This document shows, piece after piece, positions 48,189 to 58,970 of a DNA stretch of 64,000 bases. The first letter of the stretch is position 1. Each line of letters starts with the position of its first letter. The stretch is from Pirellulales bacterium. Lineage in GTDB: Bacteria > Planctomycetota > Planctomycetia > Pirellulales > JADZDJ01. Where the stretch lies: the NCBI GenBank assembly GCA_963773925.1, contig CAVZDC010000012.1:128553-192552 (forward strand), read 5' to 3'. Below the pieces are notes generated by a model. It was not told the DNA's origin, made no database searches, and worked only from the letters and a program-made list of their open reading frames with translations. The translations under genes and the position numbers were made by a program.

Positions 48189-50554
48189 CTATCGCCGGCG
48201 TTGCTTCTTCCGTTCGCGCTTTGCGGCGGCCGCGCTGCCGTTGCCTTCCTGCGCCGCTGACGCGGCGGCGGCCAGCTTCGCCCAAAAACCCGATTTCTGC
48301 ACCGCTCCGGGCGGCTTGGCCGCAATCGTCTTCGGCAAAAATTTCTTCTCACCAATGCCCCACAAGCTCGAGGCGATGAAATAAATACACAATCCGCTGG
48401 GCACGGTGAAGAACATGAAAGCGATGAACACCATCATGTACTTCATCATTTTCTGCTGCATCGCGGATTGCTCGTCGGTCGCCGGCGGCATGAACATCTG
48501 CTGCTGCCAGATCATCAAGCCCACCGTGAATAGCGGCAGAATGTTCAAATACGGACCCAGCGAGAGGAATCCGCGATACGCCGTGATAAACTGCGGCATC
48601 ACGCCCGTCCAATTCCAGAGCATGTCGGGGGCCGCCAGATTGGAGCACCAGCGGATGCCCGAACCCAACAGCGGCGCCTGCCGCAGCTCCACGTCGACCA
48701 TCAGCGCCCGATACAGGCCCATGAAAATCGGCAACTGCAAAAACAGCGGCAAGCAGCCCGACATCGGGTTGTAGTTGTGCTTGCGCCACAGTTCCTGCAT
48801 GGCGCGGGTTTTTTCCTCCGCCTTGCCTTTGTATTTTTCGTTGATCCGGTCCATCTCCGGCTTCAGTTCTTGCATCTTTTGAGCCATCATGCGCCTGCTT
48901 CCGCGAGATGGGAAACATGCATGCCCGCACCAACACCGTGAGCAATACGATGGCGATGCCGTAATTGCCCACGATGGAATAAAAGAAGTGCAGCACCTGC
49001 GTCATCAGCCGCGCCACGCCCGCCCAAATCGGCCAGCCATAATAGATGAGCTCGCCCAGGTTGTTCTGCGGATCGCCGTAGTGCGCCAGCAACTGCGGCT
49101 GCTTGGGCCCGGCAAACACTGTGTACGTGTGCTCAAGCGCCGCATTGGGCTCAAGCGTTTGCGTCACGCTCACCAGCCGGCAGGTCACGTCCCCCAGGGT
49201 GCGAAAGCGTTGATCTTGCGGCAGCGCGCCGACCAAAATCGCCTTGATTTGCGCCAACCACGGCGGACGATCGCGGAACGGCTCCGGCAGCAGTGCGCAG
49301 GCGAAGTATTGGGCGTCCACTCCGGCATAGGCCAAAAGTTCGCCGGGATCTTCCGAACGATACGGCGGGTTTAATTTCCCCGCCGCCACTTGCATCGGCG
49401 TGATCAGCGTGGGCTCTTTCCCCTGCAGCATCAGCGCCACGTCGCGCACTCCCACGCCGCCCCACTCCCGCGAAATCCGCGTGGAATACCACCATCCCTC
49501 GGTGGGCAAGCCGGTGGGGCCGTCGAGTTGATAGGCCACTTTTCGCGCCGCTGTGCCGACGTTGCGCAGCTCCACCTCCAACGTAAATTGATAACCTGGG
49601 CTATCCTCGGCCGTTTTGGCAAAGTCGATAGCGTTTGACCGCTTCCAAGCCCAGGTTCGTCAGCGGGCGGGTGAATTCCACCGTGTCGGCATCGACTTGC
49701 TTACCGGTCCAATAGCTCGAACGCAGCCGCACGCCCTGCAGCTCGGCATCGAGTTCCGCGTTGTCTCTCAGCTTTTGATCATCCACCTGCCACAGCGTGA
49801 GCAAGTACGAAAAGGGATCGTGTTCCTCGGGCATGGCAACCTGGATCGACTTGCCGCGACTGATCGGTGTGCCGCTTTCCGGCTGAACCACTTCGCTGGG
49901 GCGCCAGGCGAGCGTGACAGCAACGGTTTGTGATTGGCCCTCGCGGGTGAATGTCAGGTCGATTTTCTGTTCGGGCTTGGTGCCTTTGAGCACTTCTTCA
50001 AGCGCCGCGACAATCGACCACCGCCTGGCCGTTGACGGCAGTGATCACGTCGCCGGCTTTCAAGCCTGCGTTGGCCGCTGGCGTCCCGGGCCCGACCACG
50101 TTCACCTTCACGCCTTGCGGCGCATTTTCGGCGGCCAGATGCCCCAGGTATCCGCTGCGATCTTCGAAATCGCGAAACTTGGGATTGCTGATTTCGATGC
50201 GCTCCACGGCGGCGCCGTGATTGGTCAGCGTCACCATCAGCCGATACGGATTCTTCGCGTCTGGATCGACCGAACCCAACGTAAACCATTGCGGCTGTGC
50301 TTCAGGCGCTCGGCGGCCGCTTGCGCGGGAGCTTTGGAAGGCTGCGCTTCAGGCGGCTTGGCGGCGGCTTGTTCCGGCTTTGCTTCCTCCTGGGCGCCTG
50401 GCTGGCCCGCGGGGCCCGGTTTCTCGGCGGCCTGCTCGTTGGCCTGCTGCCCCGGCGGCACTTTCTCGGCCGGATGCAGCACCGACTGCAACCACAAATT
50501 GCCGATCAAAATCAAGATCGACAGCGCCACGAATAGTACAAAGCGTCGTTCCAC
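48189..50554 (-). CDS. yidC: Membrane protein insertase YidC with enlarged periplasmic domain containing a PDZ domain (at least 4 frameshifts)
   Basis: ORFs 50237.. (MERRFVLFVALSILILIGNLWL), 49998.., 49601.., 48349.. (NYGIAIVLLTVLVRACMFPISRKQ) and 48189..48890 (MQELKPEMDRINEKYK...NPMSGCLPLFLQLPIFMGLY). Confidence 0.8.
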
Positions 50555-51648: not shown

Positions 51649-52353
51649 ATGCGAATTCTGGCCATCGAAACCAGCGACCAATCGGGCAGCGTGGCGGCGC
51701 TGGAGGGCGGCCACGTGGTGGGCTGCTGTGACCTTGATCCGGCGGTGCGCAGCGCCGTTTCGTTGGCCCCGGCGATTGCTCAGTTGCTGGGCGATGTAGA
51801 TTGGCGGCCGCGCGACGTGCAGCTAGTTACAGTGGCCACCGGCCCGGGTTCGTTCACCGGCCTGCGCGTCGGCGTGACCACCGCCAAGATGTTTGCCTAC
51901 GCCGCGGGGGCCGAAGTTTTGGGCGTACACACCCTGGAAGCCATCGCTTGGCAAGCACCCTGGCAGACGAGGGAGCTTTGGGTGGTGATCGACGCCCAGC
52001 GCGACCAGGTGTTCGCCCGGCGTTTCTCAAGGAATTCGTCGGACGATTGGCAAGCTCAAGGGGAAGTTCTGCTGTTAGATAACGACGCCTGGCTGCGACA
52101 ATTGGCTGGCGGCGGGGCTGGGGGTTTGGCCGTCAGTGGACCGGCGCTGGCTAAACTGTCGGACCGCATTCCGCGCGACGTGACCATCGTCGACCACGCC
52201 TTGTGGCTTCCCAAAGCCGAGGCGGTCGGGCAGCTTGGCTGGCGATATTATCAATCGGGGCGCCGCGAAGATGCCGGCGCCTTAGTGCCGTACTATTTCC
52301 GACCCAGTGCGGCCGAGGAAAAGCGGCGTCGCATTCAGCCGCATGCGCCGTGA
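51649..52353 (+). CDS. tsaB: tRNA threonylcarbamoyladenosine biosynthesis protein TsaB
   Basis: Intact ORF: MRILAIETSDQSGSVA...VATGPGSFTGLRVGVTTAK. Confidence 0.85.
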   Translation: MRILAIETSDQSGSVAALEGGHVVGCCDLDPAVRSAVSLAPAIAQLLGDVDWRPRDVQLVTVATGPGSFTGLRVGVTTAKMFAYAAGAEVLGVHTLEAIAWQAPWQTRELWVVIDAQRDQVFARRFSRNSSDDWQAQGEVLLLDNDAWLRQLAGGGAGGLAVSGPALAKLSDRIPRDVTIVDHALWLPKAEAVGQLGWRYYQSGRREDAGALVPYYFRPSAAEEKRRRIQPHAP

Positions 52354-52372
52354 ACGGCCCGGTAAACAAACA

Positions 52373-52403
52373 GGCCGCCGATCGAGGTGTTCGATCGGCG
52401 GCC
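52373..52403. terminator. Perfect 13-bp stem-loop GGCCGCCGATCGA-ggtgt-TCGATCGGCGGCC between convergent tsaB and the Cys-rich gene
   Basis: Read directly. On the minus strand it is followed by TGTTTGTTT. A second 7-bp hairpin lies at 52422..52439. Confidence 0.6.
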
Positions 52404-52452
52404 AAACGCTTTGGTACCGTGTGCCGGAATCGTCCGGCATTGCCTGGCTCAA

Positions 52453-53310
52453 CTACACCAGGTCGGCTTGCTGGCAGTCGAAATTGCACCAATCGCGGCA
52501 CTGCGACAGGCAGTGCACGATATCGCAAGCCTGGGCCTGGCAGCACTTGCTGCAGCTGGTTGACTTGCACGAGTTGTTCTCGCAGCACACGCGAGTGTTC
52601 TTATCCGAGCAGGTGACCGAGCACTTGTCCAACGAGTGGCAGCGGTCGATGCACACATAGTCCGCGCCCTTGCCGCAATCGCAGCTGATTTTCTTGCACA
52701 CATCGCACCGGTTGATCACGCAGCAATCCTTGTCGGCGCCCAGCTTGCACTGGATATCGCAAGTGCCGCAGCACCGTTCAACCAGCACGTTGTCGCAGCC
52801 GGCTCCCGTATCGCAGCAAATCGAACCCTGGGTGCAACCGTTGCGATCTTTCTTGCCGTCGCAGCTCTTACTGCAGATGATTTGGCAGCAGGAAAGGCGC
52901 ACATCGTCGGCGCCATTTGCGCCGTTAATGCCGAGGCCTGCCGCTTCGCAGTTGCAAATCTGCACGCAGTCGTTGCCGTTGCCTCCGCAAACGCAAATGC
53001 ACTCGCGAACGCAGCAGCCGTCGATCTTCACGCTGTCGCAACCGTCCTTCATGTCGCACTTGATGGCGCACACGTTGCAGCAAGTGAAGCAGTCGCAGCC
53101 GTTCACCTTCGTGCCATTCAAACCACGGACTTCGATCCTCCCGTCGCTGCATTGGCTAACGCAAATGCAGTTGTCGCATTTGTCGCCTGTGATGCACAAA
53201 TTCCCATTCGTACAGGCGCAACAAACGTTGCCCGCCATCATGGCCCGATCTTCCAGGTGCTCAAACAGCAGGCTCCGCCCAGGCGCGCGCACTTTCAAAA
53301 GCCTTTCCAT
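52453..53310 (-). CDS. Hyper-cysteine secreted repeat protein (285 aa, 56 Cys), paralog A of the triplet
   Basis: ATG 53310 with GGGAGG upstream, inside ORF 52453..53634. Leader MERLLKVRAPGRSLLFEHLEDRAMMAGNV. The body aligns with the two upstream paralogs. Confidence 0.75.
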   Translation of the reverse strand: MERLLKVRAPGRSLLFEHLEDRAMMAGNVCCACTNGNLCITGDKCDNCICVSQCSDGRIEVRGLNGTKVNGCDCFTCCNVCAIKCDMKDGCDSVKIDGCCVRECICVCGGNGNDCVQICNCEAAGLGINGANGADDVRLSCCQIICSKSCDGKKDRNGCTQGSICCDTGAGCDNVLVERCCGTCDIQCKLGADKDCCVINRCDVCKKISCDCGKGADYVCIDRCHSLDKCSVTCSDKNTRVCCENNSCKSTSCSKCCQAQACDIVHCLSQCRDWCNFDCQQADLV

Positions 53311-53909
53311 CACACACCTCCCGTCACAGTGAGAAGAATTGGAGAAGAGAAACCCGTTGCTTCTTCTCAGTTCCGTCCGGCGGCACAGGCGAATCGAATC
53401 GCCCGAAGCCGTTACCGCTGCGCGTCTTCCCTTTTCCGAAGTGGCGGCCGGCTTATGCGAGCCGCCCGGAAGAAGTACACCCAACCCGAAGGCGTAATAT
53501 AGCGATTTGGGAAGATAAGGAAAGATAAATGATATGTTAAGTATGTGACGACTAGTGGCTTTAGGCGTTTCACGATGGCAAGTAAGAGTTGATTGAATTG
53601 ACCTAACTTGCTTCCATAACTTAAGATATGTCAATTACAGCACGTCCCAGTTGGAATCCAACGCGGCTTGCCGGCCGATCTATTTGGCAGAAGAAACGTG
53701 CACATTTCTCGCTTAGACGACGTCGTTCCTTAGGTCGCCCTACCGGAATCGAAAGCCGATAACGGATTGTTAGGAGAAATGATTGCCCACGCCGACAATG
53801 ATGGCGTTGCTGCCGTTATCGTTAAACAGCCCCGTTCCGCCAGCACCTGACATCCGCGCGGCCGCGCTGATCGCCTAAGGTTCAAACAGCTTTAAGCGGC
53901 GGCTCATGC

Positions 53910-55352
53910 TCATCCAATCACGTGCTCAAAGCCGGTGTCGGTTTCACTGCCGGGCGGAAAATGGTTGTGGCTTTTCACTAGCGTGTCGCCAGTGCCGTCG
54001 CCGCCGTCGAAGTTCTCCACGTCCGCCGTGCAATTAATCACCGTCAAGGTTTCGTTTTTGCCCGCGCCGAGCGTGACGTTCATTGAATCGAATTGGCGGT
54101 TAACCACGGTGTTCAAAAAAACCGCGTCTGTGCCTCCGCCCGTGTCGATATTCAGATCGCCGGTGATGGTCGAGTTCACCAGGCTCACCGTGTCCTTGCC
54201 GTCGCCCATCGCAATGCTGAGGGTCCCGGCAATGAAAAGCTTGTTGAAGCTCAGCACGTCGTTGCCGCCATTTCCGTTGATGTAGGAATCAGTCGCGGCA
54301 GTGACATTCGAAACCGTCACAACGTCGCTCCCCGCACTAAGGTCCATGGAGAACTCTTCGCCCGTGCTCTTGGAGTTAACGACCGTGATCACGTTGTGCG
54401 ATGAAGCCGGCCCCACTGCGTCGACGTAGAGCTCGCCCACCGAGGTGCAATTCGTAATGGTGGCTACATTCTTGCCCCCGGCGACATAAACGATAATCGC
54501 CTCACCGGCATGGAGGCCGGAAATGGCGACGGCGTCGTTGCCAGGGCTAAGATCAAAATCGATGTAGTTGCCCGTCGTGGAATTGGTGCCGACGACCGAA
54601 TTGTTGCCGTAAGTATCTTCCACCAGCAGCGCATTGCAAGACAGCCCGGAGAATTGCACCGCGTCATTGCCATCGCCCGGATCCTCACCGGTTACCACGT
54701 TGATGGCCCCGTCGGAACTGCAATTTCTGACAATCGCCGCGTCGCTGCCGTTGCCGGTTTGCACAGTGATGTCATCTTGCCCGAAACAGTTGGTAACCGT
54801 CACCACATCGTTGCCGCCCGCCGTAATGATAGCTAAGCCGAACGCCGTGACCTTGTTCAGCGACACAGTGTCACGGCCATTGCCGGTGGTAACGTTGCCG
54901 AAGATCGTCGTCGTGAGCACGACGTTATCAAGCGTCACCACGTTGTTGCCGGTGGAAGCTTGCTCAATCTGGAATGTTCCAACGTGCAAATTCGCCAGTT
55001 GCGTGGTCTTCGAACCTTGAACCCCCGGCGTGTAAAAAATGTTTAAGTTGCCGGTAAGAGTTCCGTTTTGGACCTTCAGCACGTCATTGCCGGCGTTCAG
55101 GTAAATGTCGATTTCGTTCACCCCGGGAAACGCTTGCGCGGAATTGCTGCCGTTCACCTTCGTGCCGATGCCCTTCACCTGCCAGTCGCCGTTCGCCAGT
55201 TGCGAAACTTGAATGTTGTTCGCCGCCGCATCTCCCGTGATTTCCAAATTGTCGACGACCACCGAGGCCGTCACGTTGCCGGCCAACAGATTGCGGTTTT
55301 CCAGTAATTCAAAGCTGGCTTGACGATTCGAGAGTGCGCCGCGTTTTTTCAT
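53910..55352 (-). CDS. Secreted repeat (beta-solenoid-like) protein, paralog B (480 aa, 5 Cys)
   Basis: Intact ORF. Leader MKKRGALSNRQASFELLENRNLLAGNV. About 17 repeats of about 22 aa (e.g. IITAGGNDVVTVTNCFGQDDIT, IAMGDGKDTVSLVNSTITGDLN). C-terminal module FDGGDGTGDTLVKSHNHF...GFEHVIG. Confidence 0.75.
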   Translation of the reverse strand: MKKRGALSNRQASFELLENRNLLAGNVTASVVVDNLEITGDAAANNIQVSQLANGDWQVKGIGTKVNGSNSAQAFPGVNEIDIYLNAGNDVLKVQNGTLTGNLNIFYTPGVQGSKTTQLANLHVGTFQIEQASTGNNVVTLDNVVLTTTIFGNVTTGNGRDTVSLNKVTAFGLAIITAGGNDVVTVTNCFGQDDITVQTGNGSDAAIVRNCSSDGAINVVTGEDPGDGNDAVQFSGLSCNALLVEDTYGNNSVVGTNSTTGNYIDFDLSPGNDAVAISGLHAGEAIIVYVAGGKNVATITNCTSVGELYVDAVGPASSHNVITVVNSKSTGEEFSMDLSAGSDVVTVSNVTAATDSYINGNGGNDVLSFNKLFIAGTLSIAMGDGKDTVSLVNSTITGDLNIDTGGGTDAVFLNTVVNRQFDSMNVTLGAGKNETLTVINCTADVENFDGGDGTGDTLVKSHNHFPPGSETDTGFEHVIG

Positions 55353-55440
55353 GGAGGCACCTGTTCAGGGAGGCCGAGTTAGCGGGTCGAGCTAGAAGTG
55401 CGGTTCTATTGTAATTGGGAGTTCGCCGTCCGTACAAAAT

Positions 55441-55471
55441 CACGGCCGTTGGATCAACTCCAACGGCCGTG
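55441..55471 (-). terminator. Perfect 13-bp stem-loop CACGGCCGTTGGA-tcaac-TCCAACGGCCGTG between paralogs C and B
   Basis: Read directly. On the minus strand it is followed by ATTTTGTA. Confidence 0.55.
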
Positions 55472-55507
55472 TTCGCTTTCAATCTCTTAAAACCCAGGAC
55501 TCTCGAA

Positions 55508-57122
55508 TTACACCACGGTCTCAAAACCCTGGTGGTATTCCGAACCGAAATTGTTGTGGCTGCGGACCAACACGTCGCCGCTGCCATCGCCGCCGTCGAA
55601 GAAGGCATCGGAAGCCGAGCTATTGATAATCGTCAAAGCGTCGTGGTTGCCGCCGTCCAATTCAACGCAAATATGGTCGGCTGCCAAAGCATTGATCGCC
55701 ACGGCATCGGTCCCGTCGCCGGTGTCGATAAATGCTTTGCCGACAACGTTCACCTTCACGATCGACACCACGTCGTTCCCGCGGCCGGTGCAAATCGACA
55801 GGTCGGTCACCCAGTCGCAACGCTCTTGCTGGCCGAATTTGCTGTTGGAAATCGCCACCGCGTCAGCACCGTCCAGGCTGCTGTCGCACAGGTCGGTCGT
55901 GTCGATCTTCGCAAAGCAGTCGGTGCACACGAAGGCTAGCGCCACCGCGTCGTTCTGATTGCCCGTATAGATCAACAGCGCCCCGCACTCGAAGCAGCAG
56001 CACTCCCAATTCTGCTCGACTTGCGTCGTCACCACGTCCGGCGTCAGCCATTCCTGTTCCTGCTGGGCAGCGTACACGTTCACCTTGGTCAGCGCCACCG
56101 CGTCCACACCGTCCTTGACCGAAGTCGACGATGGCGTGCTTGGCGTCACTTCCAACATCCGCCCTTCGCACGGGCAGCATACCTGGCCCGACGTGTCGAT
56201 CTGTAGGAACCCGTACACCGTGGTCGTGGTGATCGCCACCGCATCGTTGCCCAGGCCGGTTTCGATGCACAGACCGCTGGCCTCGCTGCCGCCGTCCTGC
56301 AACGGCTGCAGGCTATAAACCATCGGCTGATTGCCGAATCGCGAATTCACAATCGCCACGCTATCGACGCCGCTGCACGTGTCGATCGTCGTTAGGCAAT
56401 CGATCTGCACTTTGTTCAGCGCGATGGCATCCACCCCGGTGCCCCCCACGATGTTTGCGCCGCATTCCTCGCGCGGCAGCGTGCATTCCAGAATCTCGAA
56501 CCCGTCCGGAAGGTCGCTATCGTCGGGTTGACCGGGGGCTCCAACCACTGAGTCATTAACCATCGTCAAGGCGTTCGCCTTCCCGTTGCCTAACTGAACC
56601 TGCAGGGCGCCCAAAATCTGCGTGTTCGTAATTGTCACGGCGTCGGTGCCGCCGTAGGTCTGAATGCCTAAATCGTAATTGAAATGGCAACTGTTGATCA
56701 CAATCGCGTTGTTCCCCTCGCCGCCGTCGATGGCGGTTTCCCAATTCACGGTAACGCTTTGTACCAACAGCGCGTCGGTCCCGGCGCCCAGCAAAATTCC
56801 TAACCCGACGTCGCCGCTCTCGCCGTTAATCGTCAAGTTCTTCAAAGTCAGCGAATCGTTGCCGCTCCCCATGTCGACGAAAATGCCGTCGGGGGCGTAG
56901 AAGGTTTGCGCCGAATTGCTGCCGTTCACCTTCGTGCCGCGCCGGCCACCTTGTAGGTGTCGGGGGCGGTCTGCGTGATCGTAATCACATTGGCGCTTCC
57001 GTCGCCCAGTACGATCAGCGCTCCGCTGCCGGCATCGGCCGTGACATTACCGGCCAACAAATTCGCGGCTCCAGCGATTCGAAAATCCGTTGCCGCTTGG
57101 GAAGTTTGACCAGGTCTTGCAT
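55508..57122 (-). CDS. Secreted repeat protein, paralog C (at least 19 Cys; two frameshifts near the N-terminus)
   Basis: ATG 57122 with GGAGAGG upstream: MQDLVKLPKRQRIFESLEPR, slip, NLLAGNVTADAGSGALIVLGDGS...YKVAG, slip, then ORF 55508..56929 (GTKVNGSNSAQTFY...). Cys clusters QVCCPCEG, NWECCCFECG and FVCTDCF. Ends FDGGDGSGDVLVRSHNNF...GFETVV. Confidence 0.7.
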
Positions 57123-57370
57123 AGTTGCACCTCTCCGTGATGGTGAAGAAAAACTTCGATTATTGCCTCCGTGTGGCTGCGACGTGCGCGTGGGTAGTTG
57201 CGCGGGAGCCTCAGCCGGCATGTGCCTCGTTCTCTGCAGCCATCTTCTCTGTCGGGGATAATGCATCGCCCAACGCCGCAAATTCGTTGGTGCTTTGCAC
57301 GCAACCGGTCCGGTCGCCCAGCGATGACCAGCGAGTATATCGAGCAACCTTCGAAATGAGAAGTTAGGGA

Positions 57371-57400
57371 AAATAAAAAAACGGTGCCGACACGCAGCCG
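57371..57400 (-). terminator. Probable intrinsic terminator after cls (6-bp bulged GC stem, then T7AT3 on the minus strand)
   Basis: Plus strand reads AAATAAAAAAA-CGGTGC-cgacac-GCAgCCG. Confidence 0.45.
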
Positions 57401-57500
57401 TGAAGATCGGAAGTCTGGGTAGACAACAAACGCCAAACTCCACCGGTTCCCCCCTTTTTTGCAAAGCACGTACTGCGGCCTACCCAAGGTATTGATTCGC

Positions 57501-58970
57501 CTAGAGATATGGCGAAAACAGTCGCGCCACTCCATCGCGCAGGCGAACGGGCAGCCATCGGGCGTCCACGTCGGCCAACGTTACTTCAGTGGCCGTGCCT
57601 CGTTTTTCTTCGATCTGGCTGTCAATTTGCTGCGCCAGTTGGCGATCGTAAACCTCGACGTTGAACTCGAAGTTCAATCGCAGGCTGGCGCATCCCAATT
57701 GCCCGAGCCCAACAGCGTCCAAATTCCGTCAACCGTCATCAGCTTCGTGTGATCGAACGGCGACGGCGTAACCCACACGCGGCATCCGCCCAACAGCACC
57801 TGCCAGAGCGTAGCCTGCATGGCCCACTGCACGGTGCGCAGGTTCCCCTTCTTGGGCAAGATGATGTTCACTTCCACGCCGCGCACCGCCGCCACATTGA
57901 GCGCCGCGATGAGCGCATCGTCGGGAATGAAATACGGCGTGACGATCGACACCTTGTTTTGCGCCACGCCCAGCGCGCCGATCAGTCCCAACCGCATATG
58001 CCCCAGATCTTCGTCGGGCCCATAGCGAATTCCTCGGCGCCAGCATTTCGCCGGCCGACCCCAACGACGGATACCACGAATCGCCCGAAAGCACTTCGGA
58101 CGTGGTGAATGCCCAATCTTCGGCGAACACTTCCTGCAATTGTGCGACCACTGGCCCGCGCAGGCTGAAATGCACGTCTTTGGTGAGTCCTTTGCAATCC
58201 AGCTTGAGCCAGCAGCCCTCGCGAATATTCATCCCGCCGGTAAAGCCCACGGCACCATCAACCACCATAATCTTCCGGTGGCTGCGCAAATTAAAATACG
58301 CCACATACCCAGGCACCAGCGACCGCATGAAGGTTTCCGTCCGCACCCCCGCGGCCCGCAATACTCCGACGATCGAAGGCGTGGTGTAGCGCGAGCCAAT
58401 GTCGTCGATCAGCACGCGAATTTCCAAGCCGCGCTGATGCGCGCGCACCAGCGCCTCCGCAAACATCTTGCCCACCCGATCGTTATCGAAGATATAGCTG
58501 GCCAAACTAATCGACCGCTGCGCCGAATCGATGGCCGCCAGCATCGCCGGATACGCTTCGTCGCCGTTCATCAGCGGCATCTATCAGGTTGCCGACCAAC
58601 AGCGGCCGGTTCGTCACGTTTTCGATGAGATGCACCAGTCGCAAAAAGTGACGCCCCTCGGCTGCCCAGCATCTGCCTGGTCTGCTCGGGCGAGGTGGCA
58701 TGCTCCGAAGCGGCCGGCTCCGATTCCGGCTGGCCGGCGCATCAGCGTGGCCCGGCGATGAATTCGATTGATGCCGAACACCCAATAGAGCAGGGCCCCC
58801 AACAAGGGCGTCAGCAAGATCAGCCCCACCCAGCCGATCGTCGCCCGGCTGTCGCGCTTATAGAGTACGGCATGACCGACCGCTGCCAGTTCGATGACCA
58901 GCACAGCGGCACCGGTGATATGCGGCCAGAAATCGTGCAGGAACTGCGATATGGCAAGCGGGGCTGTCAT
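57501..58970 (-). CDS. cls: Cardiolipin synthase (phospholipase D family, two HKD motifs; at least 3 frameshifts)
   Basis: ORF 58614..59060 (TM helices, GWVGLILLTPLLGALLYWVFG), ORF 57729..58580 (HRKIMVVDGAVGFTGGMN), ORF 57674..57997 (DHTKLMTVDGIWTLLGSGNWD) and ORF 57501..57722. Confidence 0.8.

Follow-up and report, generated by a model that had tools for sequence, protein, structure and literature searches.

Several kinds of protein exceptionally rich in cysteine (Cys) have been described. The β-helical antifreeze protein (AFP) of Tenebrio molitor carries 16 Cys in 84 residues, arranged in 12-residue coils of the form TCTxSxxCxxAx with 8 disulfides; metallothioneins, bacterial SmtA and the Csp copper-storage proteins reach very high Cys contents; and chlamydial OmcA and OmcB are Cys-rich envelope proteins of the PVC (Planctomycetes, Verrucomicrobia and Chlamydiae) group. 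OmcA/OmcB and the YTV proteins (PF07639) of the same group are thought to form disulfide cross-linked walls, and Cys-rich YTV proteins have been found in planctomycete cell-wall preparations (PMC8567305 for YTV). Region IV of the Marinomonas primoryensis protein MpAFP, also called MpIBP (3P4G), is a cell-surface, Ca2+-bound RTX-like solenoid that needs millimolar Ca2+ to fold, a concentration unavailable in the cytoplasm (PMC3492233). Here we analyze gene A, which encodes a 285-residue hyper-cysteine protein and lies in a 64,000-nucleotide stretch (the window) of contig CAVZDC010000012.1 from a soil Pirellulales bacterium, directly downstream of two repeat-protein genes, B and C. Gene A is a functional gene, its product is predicted to be a β-solenoid related to MpAFP region IV, and its Cys pattern points to selection mainly on Cys density.

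Gene A, its reading frame and its orthologs

Gene A runs on the minus strand from an ATG at 53310 to a TAG at 52455..52453 through 285 intact codons. Its product contains 56 Cys (19.6% of all residues), every one of them past residue 29, so that Cys make up 21.9% of the mature part. To our knowledge, bacterial proteins of at least 250 residues with 20% Cys are very rare. An earlier note on this DNA, made from the sequence alone, had reported the same open reading frame (ORF), length, Cys count and mature fraction of about 22%; our recount agrees, and all peptides quoted there are found in the translation, whereas the spacing of the GGGAGG element to the ATG is 6 nt, not the 7 nt given. In the Cys codons TGC predominates (54 of 56), and TGC triplets number 54 in codon phase 1, 6 in phase 2 and 0 in phase 3. 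The enrichment is therefore specific to one frame, which places it at the protein level without a DNA-repeat origin. GC content at third codon positions (GC3) is 0.79, against 0.47 and 0.49 at first (GC1) and second (GC2) positions, a pattern that matches neighbours B and C. Aromatic residues and His are scarce (three Phe, one Tyr, one Trp and three His), and Asp, Asn, Lys and Gly are plentiful.

Syntenic orthologs of gene A are present in at least six other Pirellulales assemblies. A word-indexed search over 5.8 billion proteins retrieved three relatives only; an exhaustive phmmer search added P0038, P0039 and P0040, and a genome scan added L004. Full-length orthologs are those of L004 (Pirellulales metagenome-assembled genome (MAG) MFD04944.bin.2.46; 285 aa, 51 Cys), L002 (Logan assembly of run SRR22808096; 284 aa), L006 (a Joint Genome Institute (JGI) metagenome; 288 aa) and L007 (Logan assembly of run DRR656512), which holds two copies, L007a and L007b, of 289 and 300 aa. 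Those of L004 and L002 have a start and a stop identical to those of gene A; frameshifts are found in the L001/L005 copy, whose C-terminus is affected in L001, and in the L003 copy. Pairwise comparisons of gene A with its orthologs give ratios of nonsynonymous to synonymous substitution rates (dN/dS) of 0.18-0.37 at a dS of about 1. When the corresponding ratio of proportions (pN/pS) is computed in all six frames, the gene A frame is lowest (0.31-0.54), the codon-register antisense frame is intermediate (0.5-0.68), in line with its being a mirror image of the coding frame, and the other four are at least 1.1. Thus, homologs do not conserve another frame, a possibility that the earlier note had raised.

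These data bear directly on whether gene A functions at all. A chance ORF, a wrong frame made by an indel, or a decaying pseudogene of a B-like gene might be suspected, given the indels and frameshifts nearby (in gene C, in the YidC gene, in the L001 copy of A and in the L003 copy) and a 288-aa ORF on the opposite strand. However, the MFD MAGs are Nanopore-only assemblies (PMC12313526), which accounts for scattered single-base frameshifts at these loci, and gene A itself is unbroken, its length agreeing with that in L002, an assembly from a separate run. The start and stop shared with L004 and L002, the lowest pN/pS of the six frames, the third-position GC bias with frame-specific TGC, a homology to B that runs in the gene A frame, and the presence of a ribosome-binding site and a terminator all stand against a non-functional reading, which is largely refuted and has practically no probability left.

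Two alternative gene models were rejected. The antisense Ala-rich ORF (288 aa, 52636..53502, plus strand) is a mirror artefact of TGC/GCA and shows no separate conservation. An upstream TTG start at 53634, which would give a 393-aa ORF, was discarded: the alignment with the orthologs begins at the ATG at 53310, and the DNA that precedes it in them is unrelated.

Predicted fold, parent family and proposed export motif

The products of A and B align by BLASTP with 29% identity over 227 aa (E 1e-18), and hhalign of an A-clade profile against a 30-member B-family profile gives a probability of 98.7% (E 1.8e-16, 212 columns), which bears out the paralogy with the upstream genes that the earlier note had read from repeat similarity. 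AlphaFold2 with the family alignment models A with a predicted local distance difference test score (pLDDT) of 84.3 and a predicted template modelling score (pTM) of 0.79, placing a strand every 11 residues; residues 28-255 mostly score 88-98, and residues 256-285 are of low confidence. The model of B is better still (pLDDT 93.9, pTM 0.89). In a manual register of A, the turn Asp occupies repeat position 5 in seven of eight coils, Gly occupies position 3 in six of eight, and position 12 is Cys in six of eight. The 11-residue strand spacing and the 22-residue family consensus given below support the repeat rhythm of about 22 aa, and the structure prediction supports the β-solenoid, both of which had been proposed from the sequence. 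We consider it very likely that gene A is at once a genuine gene, a paralog of its neighbours and, as modelled, a β-solenoid with 22 residues per coil.

Among PDB sequences, the B-family profile has a single match, MpAFP region IV (3P4G, E 7.1e-7), in which G-x-G-N-D-x-V is aligned on GTGND-x-u; the A-clade profile retrieves nothing from the same set at E up to 1. With Foldseek, the B model matches 3p4g_D (probability 1.00, TMt 0.50), and for the A model 3p4g_A ranks first, weakly (E 0.17, TM 0.31), with no match at E ≤0.001. Like the A/B family as modelled, region IV is a parallel β-solenoid in which each coil has a single G-x-G-N-D turn and then u-x-u. It differs in its repeat, xGTGNDxuxuGGxuxGxux, with coils of 19-21 residues against 22 in the A family, and in its Thr/Asx ice-binding array, which is missing in A, the Thr of GTGND being variable in A's family. 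By analogy with region IV, A may bind Ca2+. The earlier note was right about the fold class but overlooked this link of the parent family to a Ca2+-bound, RTX-like solenoid.

The B and C family comprises at least 1766 clusters at 50% identity (phmmer, E ≤0.001). No Pfam or NCBIfam model covers its solenoid part; only the N-terminal motif is annotated. Members begin with a short basic stretch and F-E-x-L-E-x-R-x-L-L-A-G-N-V, continue into a four-strand cap (AGNV...ITGD...N.I.V.Q...G...V.G.GTKVNG) and then into coils with the 22-mer consensus G-x-G-N-D-x-V-x-I-x-N-V-x-V-x-G-x-A-x-I-D-T. Long members additionally carry cadherin, Calx-beta, Big, PPC, matrixin (M10) and PPIase domains, consistent with an extracytoplasmic location. 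Gene A shares with this planctomycete LAGNV family the motif, the cap, the 22-residue G-x-G-x-D coils and the array between phospholipase D and tsaB, yet it deviates strikingly in Cys content (19.6% against a family median of 0.25%) and in length (285 against 350-590 aa). The family of LAGNV cap and G-x-G-N-D solenoid (P0004-P0182) may deserve to be defined as a new domain family.

A, B, C and four orthologs of A were scanned against Pfam and NCBIfam (E up to 1-10). For A, the scans returned a single sub-threshold match, to PF07595 (Planc_extracel) at residues 13-29 (16.3 bits, E 0.0078; gathering threshold 25.5 bits), and no match to metallothionein, YTV, HemolysinCabind or Beta_helix models, in keeping with the earlier note, which had recognized no described family. 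The four orthologs also match PF07595, each below the threshold, and by eye RSLLFEHLEDRAMMA of A fits RRLxxExLExRxLLA. This motif (PF07595; Studholme 2004) has been proposed to direct planctomycete proteins to the cell surface; of the 52 T. immobilis proteins that carry it, 20 were detected, and 8 of these were confined to the sodium dodecyl sulfate (SDS)-soluble envelope fraction (PMC8567305). The 29-residue leader of the earlier note, which precedes every Cys, was not recognized there as this putative cell-surface motif. Taken together, the motif, the domain partners within the family and the Ca2+-type fold indicate that the gene A protein is probably exported.

Cysteine density and the explanations for it

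Against the family median, the A clade stands out with Cys contents of 19.6, 19.0, 16.8, 15.9, 15.6, 15.5, 9.7 and 6.1%. When A is aligned to family columns, 49 of its Cys can be placed: aliphatic columns receive 16, small ones (A/G/S/T) 15, and polar or mixed ones 18, the last including the Asn of G-x-G-N-D. The aliphatic columns are 30% Cys, the remaining ones about 20%. Judged from family column types alone, Cys therefore take both core and surface positions. The view that Cys replace the aliphatic and small repeat positions holds for those two classes, but it leaves out the polar and mixed columns.

The spacing of Cys is not that of a regular ladder. Pooled over six homologs and compared with shuffled sequences, CxC (25 observed) and CxxC (26 observed) each reach about half of the roughly 52 expected, CxxxC is 1.5 times expectation, fewer pairs than expected lie at lags 10-12, and the enrichment at lag 22 is just 1.26-fold; no significant periodicity was detected at lag 22 or lag 11. 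Taken by itself, A is conspicuous only for CxxxC, with 12 occurrences where 5.8 would be expected.

Cys positions also turn over. The Cys of A are kept in L004, L002, L007a, L006 and L007b at 85, 69, 45, 49 and 26%, respectively, scarcely above the identity of its other residues (73, 52, 41, 38 and 34%). Relative to L002, 38 Cys positions are kept, 17 lost and 15 gained; A shares 25 positions with L007a and 27 with L006, with 15-20 new ones in each of these three, and every homolog has 4-20 Cys where A has none. Across about 256 mature alignment columns of the six homologs, 104 hold Cys in some sequence and 10 in all. The five hyper-Cys homologs nevertheless have similar mature totals (56, 51, 53, 46 and 45), with 29 in L007b. 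Four of the six totals are odd (51, 53, 45 and 29), so at least one Cys in each of these must be unpaired within the monomer. Moreover, 84% of the Cys/non-Cys alternatives lie at least two nucleotides apart. Kept totals, shifting positions and this mutational cost together argue for selection for many cysteines and not for a fixed disulfide framework. The alignments thus point to selection mainly on Cys density, with perhaps 10-15 positions fixed. The parity of Cys gains and losses was also considered as evidence for disulfide pairs and set aside, being uninformative with six related sequences.

We propose that gene A encodes an exported solenoid with a dense, non-fixed disulfide network that acts as a cross-linker of the envelope or surface, a reading to which we assign a probability of roughly 0.45. 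Gene A would have been born by duplication within a tandem array of planctomycete surface-protein genes, retaining the RRLxxExLExRxLLA-type motif, the cap and the G-x-G-x-D solenoid, with about one residue in five swapped to Cys. The protein would be exported and fold as a short rigid rod of roughly 10-11 rungs. In the oxidizing extracytoplasmic space its thiols would be expected to oxidize, and the Cys could build a dense disulfide network, some of its bonds lying within the rod and others joining the rod to further copies or to different Cys-rich proteins of the envelope, for example paralog C. The protein-rich planctomycete envelope or surface would thereby gain a covalent cross-linker or a hardened structural element. 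A milder precedent exists within the array itself, in that C contains 4% Cys and its L007 ortholog 5.8%. YTV proteins and OmcA/OmcB resemble A as Cys-rich PVC envelope proteins, but they have another fold and a far lower Cys density, and neither YTV (PF07639) nor Omc domains were matched in A or its orthologs at E up to 10. Several observations weigh against this proposal. The N-terminus of A lacks a classical hydrophobic signal peptide, the PF07595 match at 16.3 bits is below the 25.5-bit cut-off, and the export role of that motif is itself a proposed one; no Dsb or disulfide-isomerase gene lies within the conserved neighbourhood; the wandering Cys pattern would suit a thiol or metal sponge equally; and the 16 core-position Cys may act simply as small hydrophobic residues.

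The earlier note had favoured a stacked disulfide ladder as in insect AFPs and had offered a thiolate-rich metal-binding surface as the alternative; neither is supported. In the ladder, fixed intramolecular disulfides would make A a monomeric rod like the Tenebrio protein, one that might bind ice or form the rigid stalk of an adhesin. The β-solenoid fold, a Cys fraction near that of the Tenebrio protein (about 19%), a nearest PDB fold that is a bacterial antifreeze/adhesin domain, the 10-15 Cys invariant across the clade and the Cys at repeat position 12 in most coils would all fit. However, the Tenebrio protein is eukaryotic and non-homologous, and each of its coils is bridged across the core by Cys that are strictly periodic and invariant, whereas the Cys of A are aperiodic, turn over (104 Cys columns in all) and avoid the across-core spacing of 10-12 residues, with lag 22 barely enriched. 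Framework disulfides would be near invariant, yet Cys in this clade are hardly better conserved than other residues, and four of six totals are odd; in addition, A has no regular Thr/Asx array, and its clade has no sequence match to a PDB chain at E up to 1. We regard the ladder as improbable.

Somewhat less improbable, though still unlikely, is that the Cys stay reduced on the solenoid scaffold and serve as ligands for soft metals (Cu(I), Zn, Cd, Hg) or as a sink for oxidants and electrophiles, A being an outsized metallothionein, an analogue of copper-storage proteins or a mineral-surface adhesin. About 20% Cys with few aromatics or His and abundant Asp, Asn, Lys and Gly is a metallothionein-like composition, the number of Cys is conserved above their position, as expected if capacity matters, and the odd Cys counts fit as well. 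In contrast to metallothioneins, SmtA and Csp proteins, A is a 285-aa protein with a confidently predicted solenoid and a putative surface-export motif. Furthermore, CxC and CxxC are depleted in all six homologs, no metallothionein or metal-binding family of Pfam or NCBIfam is matched at E up to 10, the conserved neighbourhood holds no metal transporter, sensor or chaperone genes, and a putative export motif together with a Ca2+-type extracellular fold would imply an oxidizing compartment in which free thiols would be hard to keep.

A precursor of a ribosomally synthesized and post-translationally modified peptide (RiPP) of the sactipeptide or ranthipeptide type was also considered. It was rejected, as A is a folded 285-aa solenoid without a radical-SAM or maturase neighbour; the match of gene C to NF045559 is insignificant (E 0.19).

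The tandem array and what it may record

In every genome examined, the array is flanked by a phospholipase D gene and by tsaB, and tsaB is followed by a metallophosphoesterase gene, a PDZ-YidC gene and mnmE. This conserved neighbourhood contains no Dsb/disulfide-isomerase, metal-handling or maturase gene, and its housekeeping members give no functional hint. The array reads C, B, A in the window and C, A in L001 and L004; L006 holds an A-like and a B-like copy, and L007 holds a C-like (5.8% Cys), two A-like (15.9 and 9.7%) and a B-like gene (1.2%). Each array has 2 to 4 family genes (5048..10175 in L007, 1750..3963 in L006). The graded series of 1.2, 5.8, 9.7 and 15.9% resembles a snapshot of stepwise gain following duplication. 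Features of the window are listed in Table 1.

Table 1. Features of gene A and its paralogs in the window
Feature	Position	Strand	Basis
Gene A coding sequence, 285-aa hyper-cysteine protein (56 Cys), stop included	52453..53310	-	ORF and translation, pN/pS, dN/dS
Shine-Dalgarno-like GGGAGG, 6 nt 5' of the gene A ATG	53317..53322	-	read from the sequence
Gene A N-terminal 29 residues, MERLLKVRAPGRSLLFEHLEDRAMMAGNV	53224..53310	-	residues 13-29 match PF07595; low pLDDT
Gene A residues 28-255, N-terminal cap (about residues 28-70) and about 8 predicted solenoid coils of 22 residues with G-x-G-x-D turns; 48 of 56 Cys	52546..53229	-	AlphaFold2, repeat register, hhalign
Gene A residues 256-285, Cys-rich C-terminal tail ending CRDWCNFDCQQADLV	52456..52545	-	ortholog alignment; pLDDT < 50
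Intrinsic-terminator-like hairpin (13 bp, 10 G-C pairs) and T-tract, TGTTTGTTTA	52363..52403	-	sequence reading
Gene B, 480-aa low-Cys paralog (5 Cys): motif, cap, about 18 predicted coils, C-terminal FDGGDGTGDTLV...GFEHVIG module	53910..55352	-	AlphaFold2, Foldseek, BLASTP
Gene C, paralog with intermediate Cys (19 Cys in the listed 473 aa)	55508..57122	-	ORF 55508..56929 and ortholog comparison

The terminator-like hairpin and its T-tract lie 50 nt past the gene A stop, at 52403..52373, between the convergent gene A and tsaB. The 600-nt intergenic region 5' of gene A (53311..53909) has 50-53% GC against 60% for the window and contains weak sigma-70-like matches. Across 52000..57800, Rfam models (E up to 1) gave chance-level matches only, with no riboswitch 5' of gene A. 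On the far side of tsaB, the YidC-like ORF at 48349..49993 (minus strand) turns into nonsense past about 230 aa, a probable frameshift; its intact orthologs in L001 (13078..15123), L006 and L007 are unusual PDZ and YidC fusions of 681-798 aa.

Compared with intact 545-aa orthologs, gene C has lost one nucleotide at each of two sites, 57064/57063 and 56936/56935, so that it is read in three frames and its listed ORF lacks the N-terminus; the deletions are either Nanopore indel errors or the mark of a recent pseudogene. The intact comparators are those of L001 and L004 (545-aa orthologs), and gene C of L004 is likewise split, at another site. The 4% Cys of gene C are partly clustered (QVCCPCEG, NWECCCFECG, FVCTDCF), and the ortholog in L007 (5048..6763) has 33 Cys. 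As Cys are enriched in two lineages of the array, A and C may be linked to each other by disulfides. The two paralogs of A share a C-terminal module, GGDGxGDxLV...N.F...GFExVV, at 49% identity; across the family this module, FDGGDGxGDxLVxSxNxF......GFExV(V/I), recalls a C-terminal sorting or secretion signal. A and its orthologs lack it and end instead in CRDWCxxxCxxADLV, part of a C-terminal tail that is conserved among orthologs and missing from B and C.

RTX/MpAFP-like solenoids and the planctomycete surface motif are known kinds, whereas neither the Cys-saturated clade nor the conservation of its density has a description in Pfam, NCBIfam, the PDB or the searchable literature, where the database searches detect homology and not composition. 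The analysis brings to light a large unannotated family of planctomycete surface proteins, with at least 1766 clusters and a relationship to MpAFP region IV. It also indicates that a Ca2+-type β-solenoid, as predicted here, tolerates Cys at about 40% of positions across close homologs, a tolerance useful for the design of cross-linkable or metal-binding solenoid scaffolds. If the proposed cross-linking role is true, the planctomycete envelope, which is rich in protein and cystine and poorly understood, would have a new component in the gene A protein. A bolder and rather doubtful extension is that A is the first bacterial folded repeat protein selected for Cys density and not for particular Cys, a solenoid "thiol brush" that cross-links a protein-based envelope. 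Were that so, the keratin-associated proteins of hair would offer a functional parallel, the old observation of cystine-rich planctomycete walls would become relevant, and the series of 1, 6, 10, 16 and 20% Cys in one tandem array would record the stepwise "cysteinization" of an ordinary surface solenoid.

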